Assembly (NCBI GenBank): GCA_008632985.1
Contig: QPGO01000373.1
Span: forward strand, 1-36,952
Reading direction: 5' to 3'
DNA from: Psammoneis japonica
Lineage: Eukaryota
Length of the DNA stretch: 36,952 nt
Of the stretch, positions 1 through 36,952 are shown in pieces. The position numbers and the translations under genes were made by a program. The first letter of the stretch is position 1; every line of letters starts with the position of its first letter. The notes below the pieces were generated by a model. It was given only the letters and a program-made list of their open reading frames with translations. It ran no database searches and was not told the DNA's origin.

Positions 1-3000
1 GCAGTTCTGGCTCCACTTCACTTTGTTTCCACCAAGGTGGGTCGTGAAATTTCTAGAGTCAGAGTGAAATGAGCCCATGATGGGGTGAACCCAACTGACA
101 AGTGCAGGCAGAGGGCCATGGCTGTCTCCCGTGGTTGCCAGGGGTTGCTTTGACCACCAAGGTTGAGCACCAAAATGCCCATCTTGTGCATTTGTTGCCC
201 CACTTCACTTTGTTTCCACCAGGGTGGGAGATGAAATTTCTAGATTCAGTGTGAAATGAGCCCACAATGGCATGATCCCAACCCACAAGTGCAGGCAGAG
301 GGACATGGCTGTCTCCAGTGGGTGCCAAGGGACACTTTGACAACCAAGGTCAAGCACTGAAAGGCACATCTTGTGCAGTTCTGGCTCCACTTCACTTTGT
401 TTCCACCAAGATTGGTCATGAAACCACAAGAGTCAGTGTGAAATGAGCCCACAATGGCGTGATCCCAACCCACAAGTGCAGGCAGAAGGCCATGGCTGTC
501 TCCAGTGGGTGCCAAGGGACACTTTGACAACCAAGGTCAAGCACCAAATGGCACATCTTGTGCAGTTCTGGCTCCACTTCACTTTGTTTCCACCAAGGTG
601 GGTCATGAAATTTCTAGAGTCAGAGTGAAATGAGCCCATGATGGGGTGAACCCAACTGACAAGTGCAGGCAGAGGGCCATGGCTGTCTCCCGTGGTTGCC
701 AGGGGTCGCTTTGACCACCAAGGTTGAGCACCACAATGCCCATCTTGTGCATTTGTTGCCCCACTTCACTTTGTTTCCACCAGGGTGGGACATGAAATTT
801 CTAGATTCAGTGTGAAATGAGCCCACAATGGCATGATCCCAACCCACAAGTGCAGGCAGAGGGCCATGGCTGTCTCCAGTGGGTGCCAAGGGACACTTTG
901 ACAACCAAGGTCAAGCACCAAAAGGCACATCTTGTGCAGTTCTGGCTCCACTTCACTTTGTTTCCACCAAGGTTGGTCATGAAACCACTGGAGTCAGTGT
1001 GAAATGAGCCCACAATGGCGTGATCCCAACCCACAAGTGCAGGCAGAAGGCCATGGCTGTCTCCAGTGGGTGCCAAGGGACACTTTGACAACCAAGGTCA
1101 AGCACCAAAAGGCACATCTTGTGCAGTTCTGGCTCCACTTCACTTTGTTTCCACCAAGGACATGGGTCATGAAATTTCAAAACAATTGGTGAAATGAGCC
1201 CATGATGGGGTGAACCCAACTGACAAGTGCAGGCAGAGGGCCATGGCTGTCTCCCATGGTTGCCAGGGGTTGCTTTGATCACCAAGGTTGAGCACCAAAA
1301 GGCCCTTCTTGTGCAATTGTGGCCCCACTTCACTTTGTTTCCACCAGGGTGGGACATGAAATTTCTAGATTCAGTGTGAAATGAGCCCACAATGGCGTGA
1401 TCCCAACCCACAAGTGCAGGCAGAAGGCCATGGCTGTCTCCAGTGGGTGCCAAGGGACACTTTGACAACCAAGGTCAAGCACTAAAAGGCACATCTTGTG
1501 CAGTTCTGGCTCCACTTCACTTTGTTTCCACCAAGATTGGTCATGAAACCACAAGAGTCAGTGTGAAATGAGCCCACAATGGCGTGACCCCAACCCACAA
1601 GTGCAGGCAGAAGGCCATGGCTGTCTCCAGTGGGTGCCAAGGGACACTTTGACGACCAAGGTCAAGCACCAAATGGCACATCTTGTGCAGTTCTGGCTCC
1701 ACTTCACTTTGTTTCCACCAAGGTGGGTCATGAAATTTCCAGAGTCAGTGTGAAATGAGCCCACCAGGATGGGGTGAACCCAACTTACAAGTGCAGGCAG
1801 AGGGCCATGGCTGTCTCCCGTGGTTGCCAGGGGTTGCTTTGACCACCAAGGTTGAGCACCAAAGTGCCCATCTTGTGCATTTGTGGCCCCACTTCACTTT
1901 GTTTCCGCCAGGGTGGGACATGAAATTTCTAGATTCAGTGTGAAATGAGCCCACAATGGCGTGATCCCAACCCACAAGTGCAGGCAGAGGGCCATGGCTG
2001 TCTCCAGTGGGTGCCAAGGGACACTTTGACAACCAAGGTCAAGCACCAAAAGGCACATCTTGTGCAGTTCTGGCTCCACTTCACTTTGTTTCCACCAAGA
2101 TTGGTCATGAAACCACTAGAGTCAGAGTGAAATGAGCCCACAATGGGCCAAACCCAACTGACAAGTGCAGGCTGAGGGCCATGGCTGTCTACAGTGGGTG
2201 CCAAAGGACACTTTGACAACCAAGGTCAAGCATCAAAAGGCCCATCTTGTGCATTTGTGGCTCCACTTCACTTTGTTTCCACCAAGATGGGACATGAAAT
2301 TTCCAGAGTCAGTGTGAAATGAGCCCACCAGGATGGGGTGAACCCAACCCACAAGTGCAGGCAGAGGGCCGCAGCTGTCTCCAGTGGGTGCCAAGGGACA
2401 CTTTGACATCCAAGGTCAAGCACCACAAGTCCCATCTTGTGCACTTCTGGCTTCACTTCACTTTGTTTCCACCAAGATGGGGCACAAAATTTCTGGAGTC
2501 ATGGCGAAATGAGCCCATGATGGTGTGAACCCAACTCACAAGTTCAGCCAGAGGGCCTTGGCTGTCTTCAGTGGGTGCCAAGGAACACTTTGACAACCAA
2601 GGTTGAGCACCAGTGGGCTCATCTTGTGCAGTTGTGGCCACACTTGTTTCCACCAGAAGGGACATGAAGCTGCAAAAGACAGAGAGAAATGAGTCTGTGA
2701 CGGGGTGAGCCAAACCCACAAGTGCAGGCAGAGGGCTTGGTTGTCTCTGGCAGGTGCCAGGCAACACTTTGACAATCTAGGTTGATTGATGCAAGGCTCA
2801 TCTTGTGCAGCTGTGGCTTCACTTCACTTTGTCACCTCCATGATGAGACGTGAAGAAATTGCAAAAGAAAGAGTGCTGGAGTGAGCCCATTGTGGGGCCA
2901 GCCAATGCCAGCAAGAGCAAGCAGATGGCAATTGCTGCATCTGTTCTGACCCAGGTGACACATTGAGGACCTTGGTGGAGTGCTGCAAGGCCGCTCTTGT

Positions 3001-3050
3001 GCAGCTGTGGTTGCACTGCACTTTGCCCACACAAGGAGGACGGCCAATCA
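1..3050. repeat. Tandem satellite, ~187-bp monomer with ~561-bp 3-mer higher-order repeat; decays towards the right edge; runs off the left end of the window
   Basis: GCAGTTCTGGCTCCACTTCACTTTGTTTCCACC recurs at 1, 375 and 562. Monomer variant B (CCATGATGGGGTGAACCCAACTGAC) alternates with two A monomers (CCACAATGGCRTGATCCCAACCCAC). Copies after ~2130 are progressively more diverged. Confidence 0.95.
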
Positions 3051-3369
3051 TCTTTTGTGTGCAGGAGTTGCTTGTGGCCCCTCTGCACCTCATTCACGAG
3101 AATGAGACATGTGCTGTCAGTGGGTGTGTGGGTTGTTTTTGGCAAGCAAGTTGTTTTCCAAAAAGGAAGATGGGGGCAAATGGGGGCTTGCTTGAAGGGG
3201 GGTGAATCAAAAAGCACGCGAAACCTTTCTGCATGGCACCATTGTCGCGCGACAGCGCGCGATGCTGTCACAGATTTTCTTGCACCAGGAGCTCGTTTTC
3301 TGACAAACAAGTAGACTTCAGGCAAGTAGAAGTAGATTAAGTGGGTTTCGAGCTATTTAGCAAGAAAAC

Positions 3370-5590
3370 GTCATGATGTCAACAGTTGATTTTTTCGGTG
3401 GCACTTGTGAACACACAAATGAATTTGCACTCCATCCTTTTCCTGAACTTTGATCTGTCGGCATTTTCGACACGAGCACGCGATGACAACAACAAGGCAT
3501 GCTTGCATGTGTCATGGCCACAAGCTGTGAGGCGTGCCGTCACATTTGGATTGAACTCGGGGATCTTGATGTCGAAAGCAGCCATTTGTTTGACATTCGT
3601 GATTTTTCATCGCCCACAAACTGGGATTTCAACTGAGTCGAGTTGATGTTGGACGTGTTTCAAAGCACTGCGTTTGATGAAACAATTGAGGGCTCTGGAA
3701 TTATGGCATTTTATGCCATGGAGACTTAAAACAGCAAATGGGTTGACAGTCAAGCAGTGATCAGGTTTGCCAACATTTCCAAAAATGTGACAACAAAAAT
3801 TGCATGGCTCAACAACCAACAACATCTCAAGAGATAGAAACAAGAAAAGTCACTCCTCTTTGCACTTGAATTAAAAGAGACAACAATGCACAACAAACAT
3901 TTGAGAAGGACAAGAAGCTCTTGAATGCATGAAACAAGAAGGGAGTCAATGAATCGCTCTTGTTTCGAACCTCTTGACCTGTTCTCTCCATGATGGTGGT
4001 TGGTTGAAAGGTTGGTGGTGGTTTTTTATGTGACTTGCAGCTTGAGGCATGTTGATGCATGAACACATGGCCCATGTGCAGTGTCACCTTTGGAATGTGC
4101 CACTTGTGGAGCTTGAGTGGACAGCTCTCTGTGCCCAAGCTTTGTCCGCCAAATGCTCCGTCAAAGTCCAGATGCTGCCCCATCCCACCCGACCATTGAC
4201 ACAAAACAGTTCTTGCAAAATGTTGTTGCCTGTTTCCCTCTTCCTCTGCAGAGCAACTCTCTTGGGGACAGTGCTCAAGAATGCTTTCCAACTTGCCAGC
4301 CAAGACACCCAACTTGGGGCTGTGTGGGCTCGAATCTCTCTCAAGACAACTGGTGTGGCAATGCTGAGTCCTCCCTCCTGTTTGACTTCCCAGGAATGCA
4401 CCCAGACCTCCTGCATGCTGGGTTGCTGTCTTTGTTGGCTTTGTCAGCAGGATGTGCCAAGGCTGCTCTGGCCATGTGTGCGCCTGGCTGGCACCACAGT
4501 GCAAGGACAGGTTCGACAACACTTTCTGCTGTCAGCAAAGAGTGTGAGCTGGCTGGGCTGCTGAACCCCACACTTCACAGCTCCTCGGCAGTCATTTCAA
4601 ATCAAGTGCCAACTTGGGGTCAACTGCACCTGGCTGGTTGCAATGCAAAGACAGCTGTGGCAGCACTTTGTGTCAACAAAGAAAGTGTGAGCTGGCTGGG
4701 CTCCCAACCCCACACTTCACAGCCCCTCAGCACTGGCTCCCAATCAAATGCCAACTTGGAGCCATGGGCTGTGAAGCCATTGTTGCAAATCCCTGTGCCT
4801 GACCCCTCACACAGCTTTGGACAGGGTCAACATGTGCAGCAAGCCACCACAAGACAGAGCAATGTGGGGTGAGTGCAGCACAGCTTGAACAAGCAAATCA
4901 TGCTGAGATCACCCAGAGTTGGCTGCTGTCCTGGGGCTCCATTCAAAGCTTAGCTGGGCTGCTTGGCTCCTTGGTGTGCAGCACATGCTTGGCATCACAT
5001 TCTTGTCACCAAGCAGCCACATGGCATGTGCCCACTGTTTGTGCCTGCAACAGCAACCCCGGCCACAAAAAAGCCAACAAAAAGTTGAACCTGCTTTTGT
5101 GGTTGAAGAATGAAAAAATTGGCAATGCAAAGTGGGCAACCAAAGAGAAGTGCCAAAAATGGCTGTTCTCGCTCATTTCTCAAGAGGAGCTTGCACTCAT
5201 GATGCAGGAGGGTCTGAAGCAAGCACCAGTCGAGATGACAATTTTTTTCTCTCTGCCCAACTTAAAACACAGCCTTTGAGTCAATGTGGTGCTCTTTCAA
5301 CAATTCATGCACACTGGGAGGAGCAGCTGGAGCCAGATGAGGGCAGCTGGCCTGGCAGGGCTTGGCTGACACCCAAGCTGGGCTGCTCAGCTTGGTGGCA
5401 TGCACTCAGCGTCACATTGTCACCCTCCTGCAGCTGCAATGTGCCTCACTCTTTGCACCTGCAGCAACCACCCTGGACCAAAAGAAGCCAGTGCAACTCT
5501 GCTGGCCCTGGTTGCATGGTCAATGATTGTGTGTGTGTGTTCAACGGTCGCATCCCCTCTTTTTTTCTCTTTTCCTTTGACCGGCCACGA
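3370..5590. other. TpA-depleted degenerate sequence of unknown origin (relic TE or duplicated gene)
   Basis: Almost no TA dinucleotides, strong CA/TG excess and no protein motif I recognise. Contains a diverged ~143-bp direct duplication (~4520-4620 and ~4663-4760). Confidence 0.4.
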
Positions 5591-6236
5591 ACATGAAAAA
5601 ATTGCCAGTTATTCAGTGACTCCGTTTAAAAGAGTCATCCGTGAGATCATGACCTCGTATAGTCTCCTATAGAAAAATACGTCTACAAGCAGTCATGTAT
5701 GTTCTCAAGAATGTCGAGGTCATCTTCACGACATTTTGGAAATTTGTCGACATAGAGATATCCAACGTGGATCTCACGTGGCGCCAAAATTGATGTTTTG
5801 CAAGTCGTGGGTCATTTCAGAGACAAAATTGTCGCTCACAAAGTCATCATCGTTTCCCCGCATTCTGGATAATTTCGTTTCTCCGCAAGCTATCAAGGGG
5901 GCAAACCGGTACCGGTAAGACCCACCTCGATTGTGATCTCGGTTCATAAACAAATCCAGAATTGCAGAGCCGACAAGAGGTCATTACATTCGTGAAATTT
6001 GTTCTCTGCACCAAATTCAAAAAACGCAAATCGGGTGTTCTGTGTGCGAGTCATTTGAACCCCGCACATTTCACCGTTTATTTTGTTCACACAAAATTGA
6101 ATTCTCACATCAACTTCAGTGATCACAAGTCTCGAATAGGTACGTGATAATGAGAAACATAGATGATAACTAATAGTTCGCAACTCTTATTCTCACTTCT
6201 TTGCCCGAAAACCTAGAACAGAGTCTCGACATCACC

Positions 6237-7118
6237 ATGAATGAAACGCAAACCACAGTTCATTCTTTCGAAAATTTCACCACCGCTCCATCCTCGAAGA
6301 CGACTAAGAAGCGAAAATACAAGAAATCAAAGCCTCTGGATGCCCCCAAAAGACCTCTCAGTGCCTACAACATCTTCTTCCAAAGAGAACGTCAAAAGAT
6401 TGTAACGTCCTCCGCTATGCCAGATCCTCCGCCGAATAATAAACGGCGAGACCGAACCGTTCATGGCAAGATTAGCTTTGAAGATTTGGCCCGTACGGTA
6501 GGAAGCAGGTGGAAGACATTGGATAAAAGGACCAGAGCGAATTTTGAAGCCGAAGCCCAAACTGAGAGAGAACGCTATGCGATGGAAGTACGAGCCTGGC
6601 ACGAGATGCAACTAGGTAAAGGAAGGAAAAAGAGAGGGCGAAAGACATCGTACCAAGTCCACAAGTCGTCAAGAGCTGATTCGGTGAAAGCTCCCACCCC
6701 TCTTGTCACACCCACGTCTGGTGCAAAGGATCGACACAGGGATGTCACGGATGAAACCATTCCCAAGGAAATCCTTGTCCCATCCAACCTAAACAGTCGC
6801 CATCGCGCCCCAAGGTCTCCCGGCTCCATTCTTTTTGCTGTTCCCGCGCTAACCAGAGATCCCTACTTTGACCCAAATGCCCACCGCGAGTGTTTGGAAC
6901 TCACAATGCAAACCATTGAAAACGCAAAGGCGGCTCTCAAGGCGGCAAATCTACCAAAGGCTTGCGTCACTCCTAGCGAGGTCGACACTTTGGATACCTT
7001 TGATGCCAACTTCTGGGGAGAAGAAGAGGAACGACTCTTGTTGTGTCAAGACTTTTTGGCAACTCCACGAGTGTCGCTTGGATCGTTTTCCGAACAAGTC
7101 GAAGCCAACCACTCATAG
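6237..7118 (+). CDS. HMG-box DNA-binding protein (diatom-type)
   Basis: Uninterrupted ORF from the ATG at 6237. PKRPLSAYNIFFQRER...HGKISFEDLARTVGSRWK...ERERY is an HMG box. Normal TA and Tyr content. Confidence 0.9.
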   Translation: MNETQTTVHSFENFTTAPSSKTTKKRKYKKSKPLDAPKRPLSAYNIFFQRERQKIVTSSAMPDPPPNNKRRDRTVHGKISFEDLARTVGSRWKTLDKRTRANFEAEAQTERERYAMEVRAWHEMQLGKGRKKRGRKTSYQVHKSSRADSVKAPTPLVTPTSGAKDRHRDVTDETIPKEILVPSNLNSRHRAPRSPGSILFAVPALTRDPYFDPNAHRECLELTMQTIENAKAALKAANLPKACVTPSEVDTLDTFDANFWGEEEERLLLCQDFLATPRVSLGSFSEQVEANHS

Positions 7119-7196
7119 CGCAATCTCAGATACAAAAAGCTTTTCATCAAACCAATCTCTCTATAGATACTCGTTAAAGTAGTTTCATTACGACAC

Positions 7197-9104
7197 TCAC
7201 TGTTCGTTGGCTACCTTGTAGGCAATTTTATCGGGTCTCGCAACATCCCAAACCACCACGCTTACGACTTGCTCTTGTCTACATTCATTCAGTGTCAACG
7301 CGTCTGCGCCATTAAGCATGCTGGAGGATTCCAGCGCATGAGTATACACGACAAAGTAATGAGAACCAATGTCGTTGTCCTCCTTGTCGGAATTCTTGTC
7401 GTTTGTTGGAGAGGAATGCTGTTGTTGCTGTTGCTTGTGCATGATCATTTGCTCGGACGTGGCACTCACGAGCTCGTTGAGTGCACACGGCAAAATGGGC
7501 CCAACAAGTTCCACGGCACCATCTTTTTCGTTTCGAACTGTCAAGCGTTTCAAACACGAGTGTAAAAAGGGTCCGACGGTTCGTGTCAATAACAAAGGAA
7601 CACGGCGGTCGCCGTCGTCAAGGCCATGCGTGTTAAGGTACACCTCCAAGAACAAATCGACATTGTCTTGTTCCGAACTAATACAAATCGAAACGGACTT
7701 GTTGTCGGTGCTCGTTGTAATGGCATGCTTGACCTTGATGGAAACATCGGCACCCGCGGTAGTGCCGTGGACTTGTGCTTGTCGCAACGCTTCCAATTCG
7801 TCGCGGACATCATCGCTACTGCTCTGTGGAAGAGAGTTTTCTGTAACTGTCTTTTGCAACTGCTCAAACTCGACACCCTTTGATTCTAACTCATTTCGCA
7901 TTCGCTTTGTTGTTTTCGACAAGACAATGAGTGGTTTGTTTTCTTTGTTGAATCGAAACACGGCCGTGTGATTGTCCGCCAAGGCATAAAAGCATGCATT
8001 ATGGGGAGCCGCATCATTCTGGCTACTAGTATCCAACCACGACATGTACAGGGACCGAAAGGCTTGTTGCCATTCGCGTTTTTGGAACTCTGGATGTAAC
8101 GTTTCGTTGGAAGTACCTTCCAAGGGATTGGAAAAGCGTTGCATTTCGGCAAACCAAGCGGCGTCCCGCCCGCCCGTGTCGAATGCCGACTTTGCGGGAG
8201 GTTTTGCATCCGAGGTTGGTAAAATCATGTTGTTTTCCTCGTGTTCTATACTCTTGCGGTACGCCGGATATTGCCAATAATACTCTGCAGCTTGAGGTGA
8301 TGGTTTGGATTGTAGAAATTGTTGCATTCCACTTTCTGTGTTGTTGTCTGGCAGCAAGATGGGATGGTTCTCCATTCTTACACGCCGTTTAATGGAATAA
8401 TCCATCACGCCATTCTCCAAATCCGCCTCGTGCCAATCGTCATGTTGCGGTATTGGGGAAAGTAGCTGTTGCTTTTCCGGAGACGACGATGCTTTTCGAA
8501 ACGGAGACTGCAAGACGCTGTCCAACACGGAAAGCAATCCAAAGCCCCCGGGACTCCTCGCTGCAGCAGCTGTTGTTGTTGGAGTTTTGCGTGCCGGTGT
8601 TGTTGGGAGATTGGAATCCCAAGACACGTGACTTGTTTTTGTGGGTGACACCTCCTTGTCATCATTGCTGGGTGGCGTCGTTCGTTCCATGACGGCTCCA
8701 AACAACGAAGACGCTGATGATTTGCTTTTACTGCTGCGGCTTTCTGTAATGTTGCTTTCTTCTTGTGAGCATGGCAATTTTGTTTCTTCTGCTAAAAACA
8801 GTGATCGAGATGACGTGGATTTTCTTGATAATTTCGAAAAACTCGTAGTATTACCAGGAGAAAAGGTGGGAAGCGGCCTCAAGGAGGAGGACGACACGGG
8901 CAAACTGTTGGATCGTTGCAGCACGGGGCGTTTTTTGGATTGAGAGAGCTTCATACTGCCGGACCGTTTCAACTGCCGCCGTTTGCGAATCTGTCGTTTG
9001 CGTTCCTGCGCACTCATGACGGGAGACAACATGCTACTGCTACTACTAGTTTCATCCTTGTTGCTATTGTTGCTTTGAGATGACGACGACGACATCATGA
9101 TCAT
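7197..9104 (-). CDS. DONSON: DONSON (downstream neighbour of SON) family replication factor
   Basis: 635-aa intact ORF with a Ser-rich N-terminus. Motifs YWQYPA, WQQAFRSLY, FYALADNHTAVFR, TTKRMRNEL..KGVEF, VPLLL...PF and ELVGPILP match DONSON blocks as I recall them; not database-checked. Confidence 0.8.
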   Translation of the reverse strand: MIMMSSSSSQSNNSNKDETSSSSSMLSPVMSAQERKRQIRKRRQLKRSGSMKLSQSKKRPVLQRSNSLPVSSSSLRPLPTFSPGNTTSFSKLSRKSTSSRSLFLAEETKLPCSQEESNITESRSSKSKSSASSLFGAVMERTTPPSNDDKEVSPTKTSHVSWDSNLPTTPARKTPTTTAAAARSPGGFGLLSVLDSVLQSPFRKASSSPEKQQLLSPIPQHDDWHEADLENGVMDYSIKRRVRMENHPILLPDNNTESGMQQFLQSKPSPQAAEYYWQYPAYRKSIEHEENNMILPTSDAKPPAKSAFDTGGRDAAWFAEMQRFSNPLEGTSNETLHPEFQKREWQQAFRSLYMSWLDTSSQNDAAPHNACFYALADNHTAVFRFNKENKPLIVLSKTTKRMRNELESKGVEFEQLQKTVTENSLPQSSSDDVRDELEALRQAQVHGTTAGADVSIKVKHAITTSTDNKSVSICISSEQDNVDLFLEVYLNTHGLDDGDRRVPLLLTRTVGPFLHSCLKRLTVRNEKDGAVELVGPILPCALNELVSATSEQMIMHKQQQQQHSSPTNDKNSDKEDNDIGSHYFVVYTHALESSSMLNGADALTLNECRQEQVVSVVVWDVARPDKIAYKVANEQ

Positions 9105-9689
9105 GGTGCAAATCTGCGAGTTGTGTTGTTACTGACGACCGTCTGCCCGAGTGAGGGTTTTGAGTTGTTGTGTATGTACTGGTATAACTCCTACATACGA
9201 AGCTGTATACTATGAAACGAGTAAAAATTTTCGGTTTTGAATTTTTCCCGAAATTTTTTGTCAGGGCGTCTATAAAATAACCTTGGATGCGCAATGCCCT
9301 ACTTCGTCGATTTATCATCAGAGCGAGAAAAAGTCAAGTAAACAACCATCTGAAACGACAGCGATGATCGATGGTGGATGCAGCTGCAAGTTAAAGGTTG
9401 ACAGCAGCCACTCAAGGCCCCAAGACTTGAGTCATTGACAGAGCAAGCAATCACAACACAGTCTGACCTTGCTTCATTTTGGAGCAGCTGCTGCCAGCGC
9501 CAGCCCCGAATGTGACGTGGATTTGAAATTGCTGTTTCCCGATGCCATTGAGCATGGCACAGCAGAAGAAGTTCACAGCACTCTTCATGGGGTCATTGTC
9601 CAGTGGCTCTGAAGCCCTGCTGCTCTCATCAACATCCAGGCATGAGAAGTTTGCCACACCTTCAAAAATTGTGTGAGACAAAATGGGTG

Positions 9690-11255
9690 CACAACAGGTG
9701 TTGCTTTTGCACCAGGTTGATGATTTCTCCATTGCAGGTCCAGATGAGTTGCACACAACTAAGATTTTCAAAATTTGTCCAAATTGTCATCTCCACTCAA
9801 GAAACTTGTTGGTTCATGGACGATGCATTTGGTGGGGCGGGCAGACATCCATCAATGTGATGACTCTGTTTCAACTGCATGTCATGCACACCTGGGTTGC
9901 ATGTTTGTTTCACATGGCTGGGACAAGATTGCCAAAGATGATGATGCAATGGACTCCAAAGCTGCTGATTTGCCTGTGAGAATTTTGTCAAGAAGTTGTG
10001 CAAGGAAATGGCCCTCGTGGAGGCACTGCAAGTTTGGCAAACTTGCTGCAGAGGCTGGTTTTGGTTGCTGCACCCCCCTTGGTGAATTGTTGCATGCACA
10101 CAATTGTGACATGGTCCAAGTTTGCATCTGCTCTGGACATTGTCCATTGCTCTGCTTTGAAGAGTGTGGCCAAGCATTTTTGTCAGACCAACTGTTGGGA
10201 CACCAACTGCAAAAAACCCATTTGGGACAGCACTCCACTTGCTTGCCCACACTTGCCCACATCAGCAACTTGAGGAGGATCCACATCTTCCTGTGTTTCC
10301 CAAAATTGACAGACTTTCTTAATTGGCTGCCTTCTTGGATGCTGCTGCCAAAAGCAAAAGCCTGCACAATTGGCGCTCTGTGACTGGGTCTGTGTGTGCA
10401 TGTCAGCTGATGCAGCTGCAGCACATCAGTGCAAGACTCAGACAGTGGTGGCAACAAGTTCCACAGAGGCCAAGTTTTGCTGTGTTGTGGGCAACACTGC
10501 CAAGATGGTTCTTTGCTTTTGTTCTCTTCCTTGTGTCTTGCATGAGAGTTGGGTTTTGCTTGCACAGAAGGACTCTGCACCAGCACAACAACAAGAAGCT
10601 CATCATCAAGATTGTCAACAAGCAGAGTCCCACCGAGCAATCGGGGCACATTGACATGCAACATTTTGCAATCCAAGACTGGAAGGATGCCGAACATTTT
10701 GTTGCTGGACATGTTCCTGGCATCATTGACCCAAGCAATGACCTCAGCAAGGCACTCTTGGGTGGATGCTTCACATGCTCATCATGCTCCACGAATGATG
10801 GGAAATTGCCATTTGGTGTGGTTGGCACATTTTTTGGGATCATGTGGAATCACCCATTGGAAATTTGGGGTGCATGGATTTGTTCGGTTGACATTTCTGT
10901 TTCTGTTTGTTGGTGCATTTGCCATCAATTGCTTGTTGTCTGGCACATCTCTTTCTTCCTGTGTGACCTGCCCAGACTTCACAGACTGTGAGTGCAGAGC
11001 AGGGGAGGGTGTCAGCTTGCCCCCATGTGTGGGTTGCAGTCAGATGACTGTTTGGGAATGGTTGATGACTGGACCATTTCAGACAGCAGAGATGATCTCC
11101 ATCTGAGATCCTCTCATTCTTGACTGCAAGTGCACGTCTCACATTCACTGCCCAGTCCTTCAGGAGTCTTTCACCCCACAGCTGCCTCATCCTTTCCAGC
11201 ATGATCCTGACATTCAAAGCACCCCAGTTGCCTCATTCCTTTCAGCATCCTGACA
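9690..11255 (+). mobile_element. Degenerate Ty1/copia (CoDi-like) 3' remnant: RT, RNase H, PPT and LTR
   Basis: Broken frames carry LHQVDDFSIA (RT), PLGELLHAH, TVVATSSTEAKF and HIDMQHFAIQDW...PGIIDPSNDLSK (Copia RNase H). PPT AGCAGGGGAGGG precedes TGTCAG at 11010; CTGACA ends at 11212 and again at 11255. Confidence 0.85.
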
Positions 11256-11259
11256 TTTG

Positions 11260-22418: not shown

Positions 22419-22527
22419 GTCCATGCACGCACCACTGAAGATGCCGTGTGGACGATTGGCCAAACGTTTTCTGTCCATGCACGCACCACTGAAGATGCCG
22501 TGTGGACGATTGGCCAAACGTTTTCTG
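22419..22527 (+). repeat. Perfect 54-bp tandem duplication within the YR N-terminus
   Basis: GTCCATGCACGCACCACTGAAGATGCCGTGTGGACGATTGGCCAAACGTTTTCT occurs twice, at 22419 and 22473. Confidence 0.95.
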
Positions 22528-22531
22528 CAAT

Positions 22532-27900: not shown

Positions 27901-28450
27901 GTTTACAGGCCAAGAATTTCAGGATCTGTTAGAATCCCATGGAATCAAAGCCAAACCAGCATCAAGCCGAAACCCACAGTCGAACAGCGTCATCGAACGC
28001 GTCCACCTTACTCTCCATATATGTTGCGCACGTTTGACTTACAAATACAAACACCAGACCCGATCCATCCCTGGTCAGGACACTTAGCCAATGCAGCTTA
28101 CGCTGTCAGAAGCACTTGCCACACCACACTCCAAGCCACTCCAGCAGAATTGGCATTTGGACGAGACATGATTTTTGATCAAAAATTCAGGGCTGATTGG
28201 GATCAAATTCGACGTCGCAAGCAACGACTAATCGACCAAAACAACAAGTGCGAAAATTTAAAACGAACAGAACATTTGTGCCGCGCAGGCGACCGCATGC
28301 TGCACAAAAGACGCGACGGACGCAAGCACGAATGCCATTGCGACGGCCTGCACGACATCATTGAGGCATGTTCCAATGGCACAGTGCGAATCCAAGCCGG
28401 TCGAAGGATCAAAGAGCGCATTAACATCCGCCTTCTACATCCTTGCAAAT
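24990..28450 (+). pseudogene. pol: Gypsy pol (protease, RT, RNase H, integrase) with ~3 frameshifts
   Basis: LLDSGSS, LDLNMGYY, RLPMG, YLDD, HVDASDYQLG, HHCC finger (HINLCHPG...CDEC) and the DDE triad VDLIGP / YDQGGEF / IERVH. Frameshifts near 26390, 26730 and 28020. Confidence 0.93.
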
Positions 28451-29356
28451 CACGACATTGGGTTCTTGCTTCACCCTTGGGGAAGCGAATGCAGTGCGCC
28501 ATCCCAAGGCTCACAAAAAGGCTCGTGACTAATTTGAAGATGTCTTCTGACGTCGTCCAATTGATGATGTGGACAATGAGTCAGAGAGGTTCTATGACTA
28601 GGATCGTTGAGTGCCATGATCTAGAAGCTCACACTTTTTCTCTTGTCTGTTGATGACGTTGTGCCAGCTCAGTGCACGCCCCTCTTTTTCGCGGGTGCCA
28701 AGTTTGCCATTGATTCAAAGCAAACATTCAAGAGAACCCATGCCCCCATGATGGGTGGTCCGACCCAAGATTCTCCCTTGCACACGGACGGAGAGTTTGC
28801 ATTGACTCGGAATCCCACGTGCCTTGGGATTGCCATTGCGCCAGGTGGAGCTGCACTGGCGACAAACTGTGCGTGGCATTTCGTGTTTCCAGTTGCAAAT
28901 GCTTTGGCAATGAATCACAGCTGCACTCCTGTAGAAGAACAGCAGCTCGAAGATGAGTTTGGCACAGTTCATTTGAAAAACAAGCGCAGAGTGCCACGTT
29001 GGACATAGAAAAGGAATGATCAGATGTGGAGCCAGCATTGCGTTTGCTCATCTCGGGCTGGATGTAGACACGCGCTCGAGTCAGACGTTTCGAAGCCAAA
29101 TCGATGGTTTCATTTTGCTGTGTTCTCAAACAATTTGCTGCAAAGCCGCGCCAAAGACTTGCAGGTGTTGCATCAGCAATGCTGCTGACACCGTCAATGG
29201 AAGGTCTTGTGTCTGGGGATGGTGCCATGTGAGTGCATGGTGGAACTGGTTTGGATTTCTTTTAGAGATGCAACAGAATCTAGTCCACACTGAGAACAAG
29301 ACAACACACCGGCAGAGCCGACAACTTTGCAGAGAGAAATTCTTCTGATCAATCTT

Positions 29357-30346
29357 TCATCGAATCTCCAGCTGCACAGTGGGGCATCCTGCTTGAGCCT
29401 TGTGTTGATCAAACACTCTTTGCAGTTCATTCACATGTTGCTTTGGCAGCTCTTGGATCTGCTGTGGTGTCGGATTTGCCACTTTTTCAGCCTCAACGGG
29501 GTCACCCAACACCGTGCTGCATTTGACTGGACAGGGCAATGGCGAGCCGCACTGTCCCCAGAAAAACATGAACGCAGCCGGGTGTCGTCTTGAAATCTCT
29601 TCAAATTCAACTTGATGACAAAAAGCATTCCCACCAAAGACATGCACTGGAATGAGACTTGCGCCGGTTTGCAGCGCGAGCTTCATGAGCCCATGTCGCG
29701 TGGCCTTGACCACGTGTGTTTTGGGCCGTGATGAAAACATTTCCGCCAATCTGCCCGGCAACAAAAACAGATTTTGACCTTGACTCATTTTTTGGCAGAG
29801 CACATTTCGACTCGCAGGTCCCGCCGATCCCCAGCAAAGCACTTGTCTCAGCAGCGGAGTGCGCGTCACAACCGTGGCGGCTGCGCCAAAGCCGTGTTGG
29901 GTCGGCAAGTGCTGACTGCAGAATGCCATCCAAAGAAAAGCCTGGAAAGGAGTCACGCCGTGTGGGTGCATGGCGCAAATGCACAACTGGGATGTTTCTT
30001 TTTCGGTGAGATGCGCCGCATCGTTTGCAATCAAGTTGTGATGCAAATCGAAAAGCTCGCGCCAGAGCTTGAAAACACTTCAAAAGCGTGGCCACGGTTT
30101 GTGAGGATGTGTCATGAGAATGAAGTCAATTATGAGCAAAACAAGCGATGCCTTTAAGGAACAAAACAAAAGAACTGGAACGAGCAACACCATGGCCAGT
30201 CCAGTGCAAAACAAACAAGGAACAATCAGCGCGAGAATCCATGCTGTGATTTTGTTGGCTCGTGTTGGTGGAAACCTCTGAGATGCGGCTCGAACCAAGG
30301 TTGGGGATCTCGCGTGTGCACCTTTAGCGGCGTTCTGCTGGCTCAT
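29357..30346 (-). pseudogene. DGAT2: DGAT2/MGAT-family acyltransferase pseudogene
   Basis: HPHG motif, then PLLRQVL, LLPGRLAEM, RHGLMKLALQTGASLIPVHVFG and VLGDP. The N-terminal TM segment lies in another frame (shift near 30080). No Tyr in the 229-aa ORF. Confidence 0.85.
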
Positions 30347-31580
30347 GTTGAGCATTTGACGTGCTCTAATGCACGTGGACGAGGCTAATAAAACCGTCGA
30401 CAACGCCAGAGTGCGCATCTGCGGCATGGTAAGTGCGGTCATAACGGCGGCATGGAAATCTGATTGGACAAACGACGTCAGCTAAGAACTTTTTTCTTAA
30501 CAATAAGTAAAGATGACATCATCCTTACCCCACCATCCGCCCCGCCCCCAGTCGCCGTGCGCCGCCGCCATGCATGCAACAACTTCAAAGAAAAAGTCCC
30601 AAGAGCAAGAGAGAGACACACACTGTGTGCGCAAACAGAAGGCACGTACCGCCCATGACAGCGGCAACTTTCGGACTAGTGAGCATAAAAATAACACCAT
30701 TAGAACCGCAGTGTTTTTGTTAGCATGGATATGTTGTTTCTCTTTTTGTTCAATGCACGTGCGACACTCTCATGGGATAATTTCTTCAACTGTCAAGTAG
30801 AAAGTTTTGCACCGTCCTTCTCGGGCCATTTAGTCTACCTACTCTAAAATCATTTAACTTACAAATAACACCGTTCAATCCGCCATATCTAAATTACTCT
30901 GTACGGTAGTTTCTGTGTCATAGAGATCTAGTTTAGGGACCTTATGCATGGCTTTCTGCGATGCAAGAAAAGACCTGAAAAATTCTTGCGATACAACAGG
31001 TCCATTTTGGAAAGAAGTACGCAAATCGTTACCATTTCCTTCTCGTCACATGTCATATCTACTTCATATTATCGATTGATACTACTTCTAAAGTCATAAA
31101 GTCGAGAGAAGTTGTCCAAAACAACCACACACCGCCATGGCGACTTGCACAAAAAAAACACATCTCATTCCACGTACAATTCTACGCGCGGCTTCAGTAC
31201 TTGACGTGATGCTTCTCGATACAGTGTGCTGTTCTGTAATAGTGCGTGCGTACTACAGTAGAGGCCTTACCGAGTCGTACGACTTGTTCTCATGCGACTT
31301 CGGAGAAACTCTCGATTTATTTAGCTGGCGGGCAGCCTCGCGAAGCCGTACGAAGTCCACTGAAGTCGCGTGATTTTGCCGATCACACGACTTGCGAGCC
31401 GATTTTCAGCTCTTGAAGTCGTGTAGTGTCGGAACATCTGTGGTATGTCTTCTACGCAATCTTCGCGTAAGGTGCTCGCACGACTTGTTCGAGAACCCTC
31501 GCCTCCAACTTGCCTCCAAAGAACAAAAGCACACAAAAACACACACCGGCATCGATGGGCCATGAGATAACACCGGCACC

Positions 31581-32675
31581 ATGGCAGAGAAAAAAACAAC
31601 CTGCGACTTCGAAAGTGCTCTTGATGCTCTGATGCATCCAGATAAACTTGGTGTTGGAGATGAAAACTCTCCACCAACTGGGCATGCCGCTGGAAAAGGG
31701 GATTGCACCGATGGGGACGTGACGATTGTTGGGGTGAAGCCCTCCGCGTGCAACAACATTGCCGACAGAGAACCTTTGTTGGAGGTTCCAAACATCCCAA
31801 AGGAGGCTGACATTGAGGAAATGGAAGGAAAGAGGCGCCTGCCAAACCTGACAAAAGAGGTCAATCAAGAGCTCTGTTGGGATCTCTTGACGTTGATTAG
31901 CACGCGAAATGCCCACTTGCCAATGCCAACGGGTGAGAGCGATCCAAAATGGGAGGAGGTTTTCTACTTGTTCTATGATCCTGTTAAAGGACCAGCGAGA
32001 GGCTATTCTCCGCCACAGGCACCAACCAAAATTCGCAATTGGCGCGAAGCAAATCTCAAAAGAGTTCGTGTTTTGGCCGCGAAGTATGATGCAAAGGCGG
32101 GGAAAGGAGCTGAGAAGGATGCGACGGGATGTGAGGTTCTGGCAAAGACTCTCAATGAAGCAAGACTTTCAGCACAGGCAGCAAAGAAAGATGAGACTCA
32201 AGAGGAACGCAACAAAGCAGCAGCGAGAAAAGCGACAAACGAGAGCTGTGAGTCGGAGCTTGGCCTCACACCTCCAGCTCCATTCAATGGAGGCAAGCAC
32301 TCAACCTGGAGCCATGACGTTGAGCCAACCATAGTTACAACTGTTGGGCGCCTGGATGGATCAGCAAGTGGAGACAGTCGGTCAAGGGATTTTGTGATGA
32401 ATTTGGAGGACGCCCAGAAAGGGGCTGAATCCTTGTTTTCAAATCTATCAAGTGGAATGGCCTTCGGCTCCCCTGAGCTGCAAGCATCCAAGAAGCGCAA
32501 GCTGGATGTGGAAACATTGCGTGAGCTATATATGCTCAAGAGCGATGTGGAAAAAAGCGGGAAAAAGGACGAGCGTCTAAGCGCTTTCTATGGAGCCATG
32601 TCTGAGGAAGTTTTTTCGTCTTTAGGCAAAAAGCCTGCCGAATCCAATGCCACCACCAAACCATCCACAAAATGA
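31581..32675 (+). CDS. Accessory ORF of the Harbinger-like element (putative Myb/SANT-like DNA-binding protein)
   Basis: Open 364-aa frame inside the TIRs, with spaced Trp residues (KWEEVF...IRNW), a charged helical stretch and a KKRK NLS-like motif. Function is inferred from the element architecture. Confidence 0.6.
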   Translation: MAEKKTTCDFESALDALMHPDKLGVGDENSPPTGHAAGKGDCTDGDVTIVGVKPSACNNIADREPLLEVPNIPKEADIEEMEGKRRLPNLTKEVNQELCWDLLTLISTRNAHLPMPTGESDPKWEEVFYLFYDPVKGPARGYSPPQAPTKIRNWREANLKRVRVLAAKYDAKAGKGAEKDATGCEVLAKTLNEARLSAQAAKKDETQEERNKAAARKATNESCESELGLTPPAPFNGGKHSTWSHDVEPTIVTTVGRLDGSASGDSRSRDFVMNLEDAQKGAESLFSNLSSGMAFGSPELQASKKRKLDVETLRELYMLKSDVEKSGKKDERLSAFYGAMSEEVFSSLGKKPAESNATTKPSTK

Positions 32676-32744: not shown

Positions 32745-34150
32745 TTGATCAAACAGCGTGCACTTTGACTTAAAGGTCGTTTGGATATGTGAATGCCGAT
32801 TCGGTTGTACTAGAGGTATGAAAACAAAAGTAACATTATTGGAAAGCGCTTGTTCTGTAGATAAAATTGTTGCCATTGATTGTTGCAAAACTCTTAGTCC
32901 TTCTAAAGCAACGCCTACTTGAGCAAACGCACTGGGATTTTGGCGCGCAACTGCGGGTCGGCAGGATATATGAATACCGATTCGGTTGTACTTGAGGTAT
33001 GAAAACAAAAGTAATACCATTAGAACGCTCTCATTCTGTAGATAATGTTACTGCTATTGATTGTGTCATAATTTTAAGTTCTTCTAAAGCAACGCCTACT
33101 TGAGCAAAACGTATTGGGATTTTGGCGCGCAAGTGCGGGGTCGGTAGGATATATGAATACCGATTCGGTTGTACTTGAGATATGAAAACAAAAGTAATAC
33201 CATTAGAACGATCTCATTCTGTAGATAATGTTACTGCTATTGAATGTGTCATAATTTTAAGTTCTTCTAAAGCAACGCCTACTTGAGCAAAACGCATTGG
33301 GATTTGGGCGCGCAAGTGCGGGGTCGGTAGGATATATGAATACCGATTCGGTTGTACTTGAGGTATGAAAACAAAAGTAATACCATTAGAACGCTCTCGA
33401 TCTGTAGATAATGTTAATGCCATTGATTGTGTCATAATTTTAAGTTCTTCTAAAGCAACGCCTACTTGAGCAAAACGCATTGGGATTTGGGCGCGAAAAA
33501 GTGCGGGGTCGGCAGGATATATGAATGCTGATTCGGTTGTACTCGAGGTATGAAAACAAAAGTAATACCATTAGAACACTCTCAATCTGTAGATAATGTT
33601 ACTGCTATTGATTGTGTCATAATTTTAAGTTCTTCTAAAGCAACGCCTACTTGAGCAAACGCATTGGGATTTGGGCGCGCAAGTGCGGGGTCGGCAGGAT
33701 ATATGAATACCGATTCGGTTGTACTCGAGGTATGAAAACAAAAGTAATACCATTAGAACGCTCTCAATCTGTAGATAATGTTACTGCTATTGATTGTGTC
33801 ATAATTTTAAGTTCTTCTAAAGCAACGCCTACTTGAGCAAAACGCATTGGGATTTGGGCGCGCAAGTGCGGGGTCGGTAGGATATATGAATACCGATTCG
33901 GTTGTACTCGAGGTATGAAAACAAAAGTAACACCATTAGAACGTCTCGATCTGTAGATAATGTTAATGCCATTGATTGTCCCATAATTCCCAGTGCTTCT
34001 AAAGCAACGCCTTGTTAAGCAAAACGCACTTGGACTTTTTGGCGCACAATAACTGCGGCGTCGTTTGGACAAGTCAATGACGATTCCGATCCGCTAGAGG
34101 TGTTGAAACAAAAAATAACATACCTCTGGAAAGCACTTATTCTCTAGACA
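32745..34150. repeat. Internal tandem array, ~183-bp monomer, ~7.5 copies
   Basis: GAATRCYGATTCGGTTGTACT starts at 32791, 32972, 33155, 33338, 33523, 33705 and 33888. The edge copies are diverged. Confidence 0.95.
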
Positions 34151-34183: not shown

Positions 34184-35620
34184 TTACTGTAGGTACTCTT
34201 CGACCGTTGGTGGCGAAAGACCGAAGGTGCCAATGCTGCTAATCTGGTTGTGATTGAAACAAGTGTAGCAATTGGCCAGCAAAAATGAAACCCTCAATTG
34301 CTCACATGCATGTGGATGCTCACAACACAGCTTCCAATCACTGAATGTACGACATACCCTGAACAAATTTGCCACCATGCCATGACTCCACTCAACTGTA
34401 ATGCGAACGCATTTCATCCGAAAGTTCTGTAGAATTTGGATTGGTGTAAGCGGGGCACCTTGGGCAGGTCGATGCGCCTGTCTGACACATTGCATGGCCA
34501 TGAAACCTTTGTCAGCATAAACTGCATGGACTTTCCCATTTGGAAACCGGCCTTGTTGGAGCTGCAACAAGCAATTGTCAATGCCGCTGAGTTCTTGAAG
34601 CCTGGCGTCGGCTCTGACAATTCAACAGACGACAGATGCAAATACATTGGTTAGACATTGCTTGTAACTCATCACTACAAATGGGAGCAAATGCTTGCCT
34701 TCGAGCTGACACTGGTCCCCAAACAAAAGAGATTCCATTGGGCAAGACAATGCTGAGGACCTTTGTGCCATGCAATTTTTTACACCGCGTGCACACTGAC
34801 CGCTGCAAGTCGCAGGCGTTTGGCTTTCTAGGTGCATCGATCCAATCTCCAATGGGACCTGTTCCTGGGGTCTCTGTCTCAAAGATGGAGCAGTCCATGA
34901 ATCCAAACATGTTGAACACACCATTCGGAAACCGCAAACCCGGCACCAAATGCTGCACATCATTCAATGGATTTGTCCAACGTGAAGGTGCAGCCAATTT
35001 TCGTTCAATTGCAGCCGCAAACCGTGGAAAGTCATCCACCCATCGCTCAAGACTGTTTCTATCCAAGAGATGCCCAAACCGACGCTCAGTGTGCCGAAGG
35101 AACCAAGGGTGTCCATGCGACCACCGCCTGGCGTCGCCACCAAAGAAACCTTCACACAATCTAACGTTGTCGAGTCCAGTCGCAATCTTTGTCAAGGAAA
35201 ACAAAAAGAGCTCTTCACCTCCAAACACATGTGCTTTGTTGCCGGTTGCTGGAACTCTTGCAGCTTGTGGTAGACCAAAAAGCGCACACAGGCGGTGCAC
35301 CTGCTCACGGTTGAACCGTGTGCAAATCCTGAGCCACGCATTGGAGCAGCAGTTGTCGATTGGCCGGTGTCTGACTCGCTCAAAGCTGGATCCATTTCAA
35401 GCTCTTCTTGGAATGGAATGTCAGCAAGGGCTGCATCTTGCCTCGCCCAATGATCTGCGAGATGACGACACGCAACCAAAGCTGTCAACGAGCATGCTGT
35501 GGCAAAATTGAAGGGTTGTTCATCGTCCAATGCTTCTTCTCCCAAATCCAAATCTGCCAGGTCATGCTCATGATTGATGACAAGAAGAAAAACAGCGAGG
35601 AACACTGTCCAATGAATGAC
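34184..35620 (-). pseudogene. Harbinger/HARBI1-like DDE transposase, degenerate, with a probable 85-bp intron (34614-34698)
   Basis: FGFMDCS, KKLHGTKVLSIVLPNGI..WGPVSARR|AD, YADKGF and NFRMKCVRITVEWSHG. The 5' end is approximate. Confidence 0.85.
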
Positions 35621-35987
35621 TCCTTTCAAGGATGTGGACCAAAGCAAATGGTGAGTGCGCAGCAAAGATTGACCACCGGTGGGAAGCGCATGGTTTCTGT
35701 GCCGGTGAGGAGTGCGCCTCGTTGCAGCACGGCGGCGATGTCCATTGTGGCGGCGAGGAGCCCTTGGCATTTCCACTGCAGTTGTTTTGTTCTTTCTTCA
35801 TTTTGTGCTTGATGGTTTTGATTCGAAACTGAAGACGCGAAGCCGCTTCGAACAACCCATGCGACATGGTCGCCGCTCTTGTCGCACGACTTCGGAGCTT
35901 GCGGCTTCACTTGAAGAGCTGATGGCGTGCACCCGCGCGTGCCGATCACGCACGATCACAAGTCGTGCGACTCGGCAAGGACACTCT

Positions 35988-36952
35988 AGTGGCCTCACCG
36001 AGTCGTGCGACTTGTTCTCATGTGACTTCGGAGAAACTCTCGATTTGTTTAGCTGGCGGGCAGCCTCACGAAGCCGTGCGAAGTCCACTGAAGTCGCGTG
36101 ATTTTGCCGATCACACGACTTGCGAGCTGATTTTCAGCTCTTGAAGTCGTGCAGTGTCGGAACATCTGTGGTGTGTCTTCCATGCAATCTTCGCGTAAGG
36201 TGCTCGCACGACTTGTTCGAGAACCCTCGCCTCCAACTTGCCTCCAAAGAACAAAAGCACACAAAAACACACACCGGCATCGATGGGCCATGAGATGACA
36301 CCGGCACCATGGCAGAGAAAAAAACAACCTGCGACTTCGAAAGTGCTCTTGATGCTCTGATGCGTCCAGATAAACTTGGTGTTGGAGATGAAAACTCTCC
36401 ACCAACTGGGCATGCCGCTGGAAAAGGGGATTGCACCGATGGGGACGTGACGATTGTTGGGGTGAAGCCCTCCGCGTGCAACAACATTGCCGACAGAGAA
36501 CCTTTGTTGGAGGTTCCAAACATCCCAAAGGAGGCTGACATTGAGGAAATGGAAGGAAAGAGGTGCCTGCCAAACCTGACAAAAGAGGTCAATCAAGAGC
36601 TCTGTTGGGATCTCTTGACATTGATCAGCATGCGAAATGCCCACTTGCCAATGCCAACGGGTGAGAGCGATCCAAAATGGGAGGAGGTTTTCTACTTGTT
36701 CTATGATCCTGTTAAAGGACCAGCGAGAGGCCATTCTCCGCCACAGGCACCAACCAAAATTTGCAATTGGCGCAAAGCAAATCTCAAAAGAATTCGTGTT
36801 TTGGCCGCGAAGCATGATGCAAAGGCGGGGAAAGGAGCTGAGAAGGATGCGACGGGATGTGAGGTTCTGGCAAAGACTCTCAATGAAGCAAGGCTTTCAG
36901 CACAGGCAGCAAAGAAAGATGAGACTCAAGAGGAACGCAACAAAGCAGCAGC
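35988..36952 (+). mobile_element. Harbinger-like transposon copy 2 (partial; accessory ORF ATG at 36309; runs off the window)
   Basis: Collinear with 31260-32224 at an offset of 4728, with about 24 substitutions and no indels seen. Confidence 0.93.

Follow-up and report, generated by a model that had tools for sequence, protein, structure and literature searches.

TA-poor blocks of the window

Contig QPGO01000373.1 of the Psammoneis japonica assembly (GCA_008632985.1), analyzed over its whole length of 36,952 bp and called the window below, holds genes, retroelements, satellites and gene fragments, and much of it is almost free of the dinucleotide TpA (TA). Scanned in 1-kb segments, most of the window had an observed/expected ratio (o/e) for TA of 0.02–0.10, with o/e for CA and TG of 1.5–1.95. 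A density-based segmentation called seven TA-poor blocks (1–5510, 9451–13539, 14129–18032, 19039–19876, 21061–24828, 28681–30217 and 34816–36952), together covering 21,783 of the 36,952 bp (59%). Their TA o/e was 0.05–0.09 and their CA/TG o/e 1.3–1.9; the six blocks of ordinary TA content had TA o/e of 0.39–0.70. Edges of the TA-poor blocks were sharp at a resolution of 100–200 bp.

The TA-poor blocks contained 93 TA in total, against 1,277 ± 27 expected from 200 mononucleotide shuffles, the lowest of which still had 1,200. The 1-kb scan, the segmentation and the shuffles thus all bear out the TA-free, CA/TG-rich tracts described by a first-pass annotation of this DNA, whose by-eye estimate of roughly 15 TA for 9360–13630 proved to be exact, at 15. 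Its statement that nearly all transposable element (TE) and satellite DNA is in this state was too broad. That is so for the TA-poor blocks, but not for the 3.2-kb core of a Ty3/gypsy element, three elements with terminal inverted repeats (TIRs), a 183-bp satellite (32775–34033), a repeat copy (31259–32224) or the block of normal TA at 18033–19038.

Going from ordinary to TA-poor blocks, TA fell from 43.0 to 4.3 per kb and CG from 54.8 to 29.6 per kb, while CA+TG rose from 147.5 to 212.2 per kb. The total of pyrimidine-purine (YpR) steps was flat, at 245.3 per kb in ordinary and 246.0 per kb in TA-poor blocks, and within the latter a TA+CG deficit of 1,982 balanced a CA+TG excess of 1,903. The remaining 12 dinucleotides had similar o/e in the two kinds of block, so the anomaly is limited to YpR steps. 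GC content was 0.47–0.56 in TA-poor and 0.39–0.51 in ordinary blocks. For a baseline we took 659 1-kb windows from 79 environmental loci carrying a related gypsy pol, in which the minimum TA o/e was 0.31 and the median 0.76. None of these 79 loci was TA-depleted, a result to be read with the Tyr in the search patterns in mind, since mutated copies would escape them.

Genes and elements inside and outside the blocks

Sequences hit include a retroelement pol gene, the ends of the Ty3/gypsy element, one satellite, and DGAT2 and PEMT-like fragments; the TIR elements, the second satellite and the HMG-box and DONSON-like genes were not hit. The first block (TA o/e 0.08, CG o/e 0.16) is made up of a 187-bp satellite, with 15 monomers at 1–2832, and further repeated DNA; word depth in the reads was 2,500–7,300 over 3100–5675. 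The second (14 TA in 4,089 bp, TA o/e 0.05, CG o/e 0.18) is of low copy number, and its content gave no Pfam or Protein Data Bank (PDB) match. The third had TA o/e 0.08 and CG o/e 0.48. The fifth (TA o/e 0.09, CG o/e 0.67) spans a pol remnant together with 1.2 kb at the 5′ end of the gypsy element, the sixth (TA o/e 0.07, CG o/e 0.74) holds host-gene fragments on opposite strands, and the seventh had TA o/e 0.09 and CG o/e 0.82.

Between the first two blocks lies a spared gene island (5511–9450), with TA o/e 0.46, CG o/e 1.07 and an ordinary codon-phase TA profile. This is the usual level for coding-type DNA, in agreement with the ordinary TA content ascribed to the island in the first-pass annotation. 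Its two genes are long single open reading frames (ORFs), convergent and tail to tail: an HMG-box ORF on the plus strand (6177–7118; HMG_box, E 1.2e-9), and a DONSON-like ORF on the minus strand (7197–9128), whose homologs carry PF27662 with a best identity of 35% and for which the ESM Atlas had no usable match. TA-poor DNA begins ∼660 bp upstream of the HMG ORF start and ∼320 bp upstream of the DONSON-like start. The depletion is therefore regional, with bounded blocks that spare both genes, as had been proposed.

The Ty3/gypsy element (23648–28677, plus strand) is in both states at once. Direct repeats of ∼200 bp at its ends (23648–23846 and 28476–28677) resemble long terminal repeats (LTRs), and between them Pfam recognized RVP, RVT_1, RT_RNaseH, Integrase_H2C2 and rve, giving intact domains for protease, reverse transcriptase (RT), RNase H and integrase, in this order. 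A core of 3.2 kb (∼24850–28100) has normal TA, and the state switches within ∼100 bp; the 3′ tract at 28100–28699 has 7 TA against 35.5 expected. The nearest named relative of its pol is from the diatom Cylindrotheca. Beyond the LTR-like repeat, the window held no further copies of this intact element.

Direction and timing of the changes

A 966-bp repeat is present in an unmutated copy at 31259–32224 (plus strand), with 18 TA and 56 CG, which served as the reference for polarizing a mutated copy at 35987–36952, within the seventh TA-poor block, where 7 TA and 48 CG are left. The two copies align without gaps at 97.5% identity. Eleven of their 24 mismatches were TA to CA or TG (six to CA, five to TG) with none in the reverse direction, nine were CG to CA or TG with one reverse, two were other transitions and one was a transversion. 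A:T to G:C differences outside TpA numbered two (31636 and 32165). Changes thus fell on 11 of 18 TA and 9 of 56 CG sites, and the ∼820 of 966 bases outside TA and CG steps had three differences. These 11 changes against no reversals, together with the loss of Tyr at conserved protein columns described below, fix the direction as TA to CA/TG, that is, A:T to G:C at TpA on either strand, and uphold the direction first proposed for this DNA.

Comparisons between other copies showed when the changes occurred. Between the segments 15299–15617 and 22948–23265 there were five adjacent CA/TG doubles, CA in one copy facing TG in the other, and another five between the two LTR-like repeats of the gypsy element. 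Such doubles would result where one ancestral TA went to CA in the first copy and to TG in the second. Likewise, in the 187-bp satellite CA and TG alternate at the same column of the monomers (9 CA and 6 TG at one column; 11 CA, 3 TG and 1 CG at another). All 19 mismatches between the LTR-like repeats were transitions within or adjoining YpR steps. LTRs of one element are identical at integration, so their divergence postdates the integration of the gypsy element. Copies were therefore mutated independently and in place, after duplication or integration. The partly mutated state of this young gypsy element and of the copy at 35987–36952 suggests recent activity.

Some duplications came later than the mutations. 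The segments 15890–16306 and 22532–22948 are 97% identical and both are TA-free, which dates their duplication after hypermutation; the same holds for a perfect tandem of a 54-bp unit at 22419–22527, within a TA-poor block. We also noted a swapped order: at the first location the segments 15299–15617 and 15890–16306 follow each other across a gap, and at the second their counterparts come in the opposite order, 22532–22948 joined directly to 22948–23265. This arrangement is reminiscent of DIRS/Ngaro-type tyrosine-recombinase (YR) retroelements, with their split direct repeats.

Tyrosine loss in protein remnants

Changes of TAY codons to TGY or CAY turn Tyr into Cys or His, and the first-pass annotation had pointed to such replacements in four protein families. 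The clearest case is a DGAT2 pseudogene on the minus strand (29357–30079; Pfam DAGAT, E 2.5e-27), whose nearest named relative is from the diatom Epithemia and which matched generic DGAT clusters in the ESM Atlas. Conserved Tyr was lost at all eight of eight columns, to His at five, Cys at two and Arg at one, so that the proposed replacement by His or Cys holds with a single exception. The 240-aa frame has no Tyr at all, compared with 8–12 in seven homologs, and no TA in any of its three codon phases. Other conserved residues were kept (H 6/6, K 5/5, W 4/4, N 4/4 and F 12/13).

The hypermutated retroelement pol (19431–22533, plus strand), mapped by tblastn, encodes RT followed by an RNase H-like domain, is colinear with homologs of ∼800 aa, and survives in three pieces (19431–19982, 20288–20655 and 20908–22533). 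Its ORF for the RNase H-like part (21592–22689) had 991 homologs, 34 of them at E≤1e-30, and 4 of the 13 homologs that were scanned gave weak RVT_1 matches. At ten conserved Tyr columns two Tyr were kept, three had become Cys, two His and three another residue. The motif DGFCR in this RT is DGFYR in 9 of 9 aligned homologs, as expected of the mutated Tyr that had been suspected there. At 34 conserved Arg columns, 14 Arg were kept and the others had become Cys (7), His (6), Gln (2), stop (1) or Lys (4); the 16 of 20 changes to Cys, His, Gln or stop are the signature of CpG decay.

Two further cases stood in part. For the motif MLRH (15086–15097, plus strand), taken as a YR catalytic site, the single homolog (P0275, aligned over 14672–15229) has RY; two of its Tyr residues face His in the window, at 15095 and 15101. 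The assignment of this possible remnant to the YR family did not gain support from Pfam, where no YR match appeared even at E≤5. The fragment first read as ICMT (28625–29005, plus strand) is a putative PEMT/ICMT-like host-gene remnant, based on a PEMT-family match of E 3.4e-4 and 21.5 bits, below the cutoff of 25.

A side observation concerns the public protein P0145 (341 aa), of the same retroelement RNase H-like family. It has 0.6% Tyr and 12.6% Cys+His, where the medians over 150 hits were 2.2% and 5.7%, and it shows Cys or His at conserved Tyr columns and Cys, His or Gln at conserved Arg positions. Being Tyr-poor and Cys/His-rich in this way, it suggests that the same footprint is present in another public assembly.

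Strand, sequence context, copy number and CpG

CA and TG o/e were about equal in most blocks, and the order of CA and TG along the TA-poor blocks was random (runs test z = 0.84). Together these indicate that each TpA was hit on either strand, independently of its neighbors, which is a misfit for a processive single-strand editor or one acting on RNA.

The flanking bases matter. We classed TA by its neighbors (R, purine; Y, pyrimidine), leaving the satellite out of the 82 surviving TA of the TA-poor blocks but keeping it in the count for CTAG. Among these 82, 43 were YTAR, 37 mixed and 2 RTAY, compared with 129, 345 and 179 in ordinary blocks; the difference in survival between RTAY and YTAR had a Fisher p of 8e-13. 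ATAT was found 0 times in TA-poor and 53 times in ordinary blocks, ATAC/GTAT 0 and 88 times, and CTAG 17 and 21 times. The polarized 966-bp pair gave the same order, with mutation at 4/4 RTAY, 6/10 mixed and 1/3 YTAR sites. Susceptibility therefore runs RTAY > RTAR/YTAY > YTAR, and CTAG is almost exempt. CpG decay confounds any reading of the bulk gains in tetranucleotides. A one-sided rule, TAY versus RTA, found no preference in Tyr-codon outcomes (1 versus 1 informative sites), and mixed-context events in the polarized pair split 4 versus 2. In the 187-bp satellite, CTAG within TCTAGAG is kept in most monomers, which fits CTAG as the most refractory context.

Copy number did not govern the state. 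The TA-free stretch 9553–11891 had a word depth of ∼37, the lowest among uniquely matching contigs, yet bins with TIR elements, at word depths of 4e4–1e5, kept a TA o/e of 0.39–0.60. The TA-free state is thus independent of copy number, and the repeat targeting proposed in the first-pass annotation is not supported.

Loss of CpG occurs in the same blocks but follows its own course. CG o/e ranged from 0.16 to 0.82 among TA-poor blocks whose TA o/e was uniformly 0.05–0.09. In the gypsy element, the tract 23900–24799 has 0 TA (45.7 expected) and yet 58 CpG, and the copy 35987–36952 lost 9 of 56 CpG while retaining 7 of 18 TA. TA loss and CpG loss are therefore two separate processes sharing territory, and the former is distinct from CpG decay, as had been claimed.

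Presence in sequencing reads

The stretch was present in runs of one sample of one study, probably the source sample of the assembly. Contigs rebuilt from one of these (run X1) had no differences from the window at 9553–11891, 12432–13588, 14293–15337 and 20971–22400, and a further contig had one difference over 15912–18158. The matching pieces were 1.0–2.3 kb long with word depth of ∼30–37. The TA-free blocks are thus reproduced with 0–1 differences, which answers the concern that raw reads might show TA at the depleted sites, and their state is not a polishing artifact of the assembly; the run being probably from the same sample, this confirmation is not fully independent.

At the gene island, run X1 behaved differently. 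Over 5676–8895 its word depth was ∼82–100 and its contigs were ∼2% divergent from the window, in contrast to the exact match at depth ∼30–37 of TA-poor low-copy blocks within 9553–18158. The TA-poor DNA may be hemizygous, present in one haplotype only, or the gene island of the assembly may represent a minor allele.

Other features of the window

The TIR elements share conserved termini of ∼70–100 bp, starting GACGCGTTCCAG, and have unrelated interiors. Copy 1 (13633–14036, minus strand) lies in a block with TA o/e 0.60, and word depth reached 63,641 in the bin 13404–14047; copies 2 (19933–20338) and 3 (20606–20995), both on the plus strand, interrupt the mutated pol and have normal TA. Word depth of up to ∼1e5 suggests that the family is present at thousands of copies. 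Copies 2 and 3 both lie within the retroelement RT, at a distance of ∼670 bp, and between them is a duplicated stretch of RT. A majority-rule polarization across the three elements was tried and rejected, as only their termini align.

The 187-bp satellite has a higher-order unit of three monomers (561 bp), some monomers being 98% alike. The second satellite, the 183-bp tandem repeat, has TA o/e of ∼0.97 and is untouched by the process. A remnant of a DDE_Tnp_4 transposase of PIF/Harbinger type (34187–34621, minus strand; E 1.7e-6) sits close to the block edge at 34816, on its normal side.

Loss of TA removes two of the three stop codons. Per kb over both strands, TAA occurred 3.1 times in TA-poor and 21.9 times in ordinary blocks, TAG 3.4 and 17.9 times, and TGA 44.0 and 36.4 times. 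Losing TAA and TAG leaves TA-free DNA with long, overlapping, spurious ORFs in many frames, up to 416 aa. Gene finders will over-call in such DNA, repeat annotators mislabel it, and profile searches miss the TEs in it.

Our Pfam scan covered stop-to-stop ORFs of at least 70 aa outside the 187-bp satellite, with a few gene-island and gypsy-core ORFs left out. Among ORFs of the TA-poor blocks it returned DAGAT and the sub-threshold PEMT alone, and the ORFs with DGFCR and YVDD had no match at E≤5. NCBIfam searches with six ORFs gave no match and PDB sequence searches with five gave nothing meaningful. Rfam and tRNA scans of the window were empty, protein searches with window ORFs returned no near-identical proteins, and no viral genes were recognized in the window. 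TadA/ADAT-like deaminases have the cytidine deaminase fold with the motif HxE…PCxxC; no deaminase was found among the Pfam-scanned ORFs.

Relation to known processes

The first-pass annotation knew of no description of such a process. The same signature is reported in Bigelowiella natans, with TpA to TpG/CpA hypermutation appearing anew in mutation-accumulation lines (Mettrop et al., bioRxiv 10.64898/2026.01.13.699255). According to that preprint, two integrated viral regions had 231 mutations, 230 of them A to G or T to C changes that are all stated to lie on TpA, at a rate of ∼6e-7 per site per generation, in some lines only and in two regions. The B. natans genome has 124 clusters depleted of TpA and enriched in CpA+TpG, TE domains are enriched among its TpA-poor coding sequences, and an ADAT2 homolog was proposed as the candidate enzyme. 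We found no other description of TpA hypermutation in the literature.

The likeness is close: A:T to G:C change at TpA with both CpA and TpG as products, regional and above background by orders of magnitude, in clusters with TE-type domains, and acting on single-copy DNA. Most 1-kb windows of our TA-poor blocks pass the thresholds given there (Rho TpA ≤0.43, Rho CpA+TpG ≥1.52). There are also differences. The window is near saturation over 59% of 37 kb, whereas the hypermutable region of nucleocytoplasmic large DNA virus (NCLDV) origin in B. natans still has a Rho TpA of 0.45. Here the process hit retroelements, a satellite and fragments of host genes, and there integrated viral regions. CpG decay co-occurs in the window, and none was reported in B. 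natans. Relative to the text of the preprint, several points are new: the RTAY > mixed > YTAR hierarchy, the near-immunity of CTAG, the lack of strand coordination between CA and TG, the independence from copy number and from CpG decay, and the sharp-edged TA-free tracts in one young LTR element.

Fungal repeat-induced point mutation (RIP) changes C:G to T:A, typically CpA to TpA, makes DNA AT-rich and requires sequence duplication. It resembles the process at this locus in being regional and irreversible: transitions accumulate on both strands, ruin TEs where they lie after duplication, and leave a dinucleotide footprint. It runs in the opposite direction, however, and here a low-copy block was mutated and pieces whose word depth is 1,000-fold greater were spared. 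We reject RIP itself, given that TA falls from 43.0 to 4.3 per kb, the GC content of TA-poor blocks is not lowered, and duplication is not required; the contrast with RIP drawn in the first-pass annotation stands. CpG decay through 5-methylcytosine (5mC) likewise funnels a palindromic YpR step into CA/TG, and does so in the same blocks, but it consumes CG rather than TA, is slower, and is uncoupled from TA loss.

Among deaminases, ADAR and APOBEC3 act on RNA or single-stranded cDNA and leave strand-asymmetric, clustered tracks. As defenses against mobile or foreign nucleic acid they are comparable, and ADAR favors a 5′ U/T beside the edited A; the products in the window are instead strand-symmetric and uncoordinated, and arose in integrated DNA. 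TadA and ADAT2-3 are closer in context, in that A34 of their tRNA target is preceded by U33, matching 5′-T/U-A-3′. The symmetric RTAY preference was matched to no known deaminase, and activity on chromatin DNA is hypothetical for these enzymes. DNA activity of amphioxus and trypanosome ADAT2 is cited in the B. natans preprint (bioRxiv 10.64898/2026.01.13.699255).

Candidate explanations

We consider it likely, at a probability of roughly 0.85, that the TA-poor blocks record real, regional, in-place TpA to CpA/TpG hypermutation of silent DNA, with the same signature as in B. natans. Hypermutation would run near saturation in silent DNA such as old retroelements, the satellite and host-gene fragments, sparing putatively expressed genes and recent insertions. 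The enzyme would be drawn by a chromatin state, not by sequence homology, and would edit double-stranded DNA site by site. The CpG to TpG/CpA decay of the same blocks would be a second, slower process, probably deamination of 5mC in the same silent chromatin.

Several points weigh against this account. Chromatin-state targeting is read from the block boundaries, and the sharp inner edge in the gypsy element could reflect recombination or gene conversion involving an intact copy instead of a bounded editing tract. CpG loss in the same blocks, unlike in B. natans, leaves room for a single process of dual specificity. A base modification read as G or C by every polymerase is formally conceivable. 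Two of our comparisons have limits of their own: the environmental baseline is biased, its Tyr-containing patterns missing mutated gypsy copies, and the use of ordinary blocks as a proxy for the ancestral composition of TA-poor blocks is an assumption.

As to chemistry, a deaminase, TadA/ADAT2-like or other, that turns adenine into hypoxanthine is a possibility that we hold tentatively, short of an even chance, by analogy with known enzymes. The natural tRNA substrate of TadA/ADAT2 always has U33-A34, which makes adenine deaminase the leading candidate. The first-pass annotation had also listed polymerase eta, whose mutagenesis at WA (W, A or T) hits A in both TA and AA contexts and yields transversions plus transitions. 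AA and TT o/e were unchanged (1.18 and 1.27 in TA-poor, 1.19 and 1.19 in ordinary blocks), and 23 of the 24 differences in the polarized pair were transitions with one transversion, and on these grounds we rejected it.

A rather unlikely but serious alternative is that thymine, not adenine, is altered: a TET/JBP-type dioxygenase or other modifier would make bases like 5-hydroxymethyluracil (5hmU) or 5-formyluracil (5fU) at TpA, which mispair with G and lead from T to C. Both of these bases are strongly mutagenic toward C. As TpA is palindromic, sequence alone cannot separate A to G from T to C on the opposite strand, so the altered base is hidden, and the flanks betray no one-sided rule (1 versus 1 in Tyr codons, 4 versus 2 in mixed-context events). 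Dinoflagellates produce 5hmU enzymatically, and there it is concentrated over repeats and silences TEs, as described in two papers (PMC11572971, PMC11071213), which lends the idea a precedent; the base-resolution map of Breviolum in the second gave no sequence motif for 5hmU, which speaks against it.

It is more doubtful still that the pattern is a passive by-product of heterochromatin, with replication or repair in methylated silent DNA (mismatch or glycosylase repair, for example) skewed to G:C at TpA. That TA and CpG loss share blocks, that genes and their upstream regions are spared, and that copy number is not predictive would all follow. Against this, the two losses are uncoupled in the tract 23900–24799 and in the copy 35987–36952, the almost complete erasure and its strict ranking of tetranucleotides look like the work of an enzyme, and the B. 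natans process switches on in some lines and in two regions only.

Artifact or mere composition, whether from assembly, polishing or base-calling error at modified TpA or from foreign DNA that was already TA-poor on arrival, is very improbable. The stretch is known from a single sample and study whose sequencing platform is not on record, and modified bases can give systematic miscalls on some platforms. However, run X1 contigs recreate the TA-free blocks with 0–1 differences at ∼30–37× word depth, Tyr gave way to His or Cys in both the host-type DGAT2 fragment and the retroelement, the 97.5%-identical paralogs differ almost solely at TA and CG, and CA and TG alternate between copies.

The weakest candidate is ADAR-like A-to-I hyperediting of TE transcripts fixed by reverse transcription, which has in its favor ADAR's preference for a U just 5′ of the A that it edits (cited in bioRxiv 10.64898/2026.01.13.699255) and the several retroelements among the affected sequences, but which would give TA to TG on the sense strand only where we observed CA about equal to TG (runs test z = 0.84), and which is further opposed by the mutated satellite and opposite-strand gene fragments, by the CA/TG doubles between the LTR-like repeats of one insertion, changes that postdate integration, and by block edges that ignore element edges.

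Implications

To our knowledge, no cellular process of A:T to G:C hypermutation at one genomic dinucleotide was known before the 2026 B. natans preprint. The value of the window lies in a probable second lineage, in the level of saturation, and in the constraints it places on any mechanism: RTAY is preferred over YTAR with CTAG nearly immune, hits fall on either strand independently, repeats are not needed, CpG decay is independent, and tracts are sharp-edged at the kilobase scale.

The fullest form of the account is that a chromatin-guided defense editor erases TpA from silent duplex DNA with a symmetric RTAY preference, that it does so in a second, distant algal lineage, probably a stramenopile, and that, unlike in B. 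natans, it has remade much of the repeat compartment. We regard this as a reasonable working idea that still falls short of even odds. A natural duplex-DNA A:T to G:C editor would interest the base-editing field. If the account is true, tract edges within a single young LTR element could show how targets are delimited, and the process would represent an old defense, common to the stramenopiles, alveolates and rhizarians (SAR) or wider, carried out by a natural A:T to G:C editor of DNA that has yet to be discovered.

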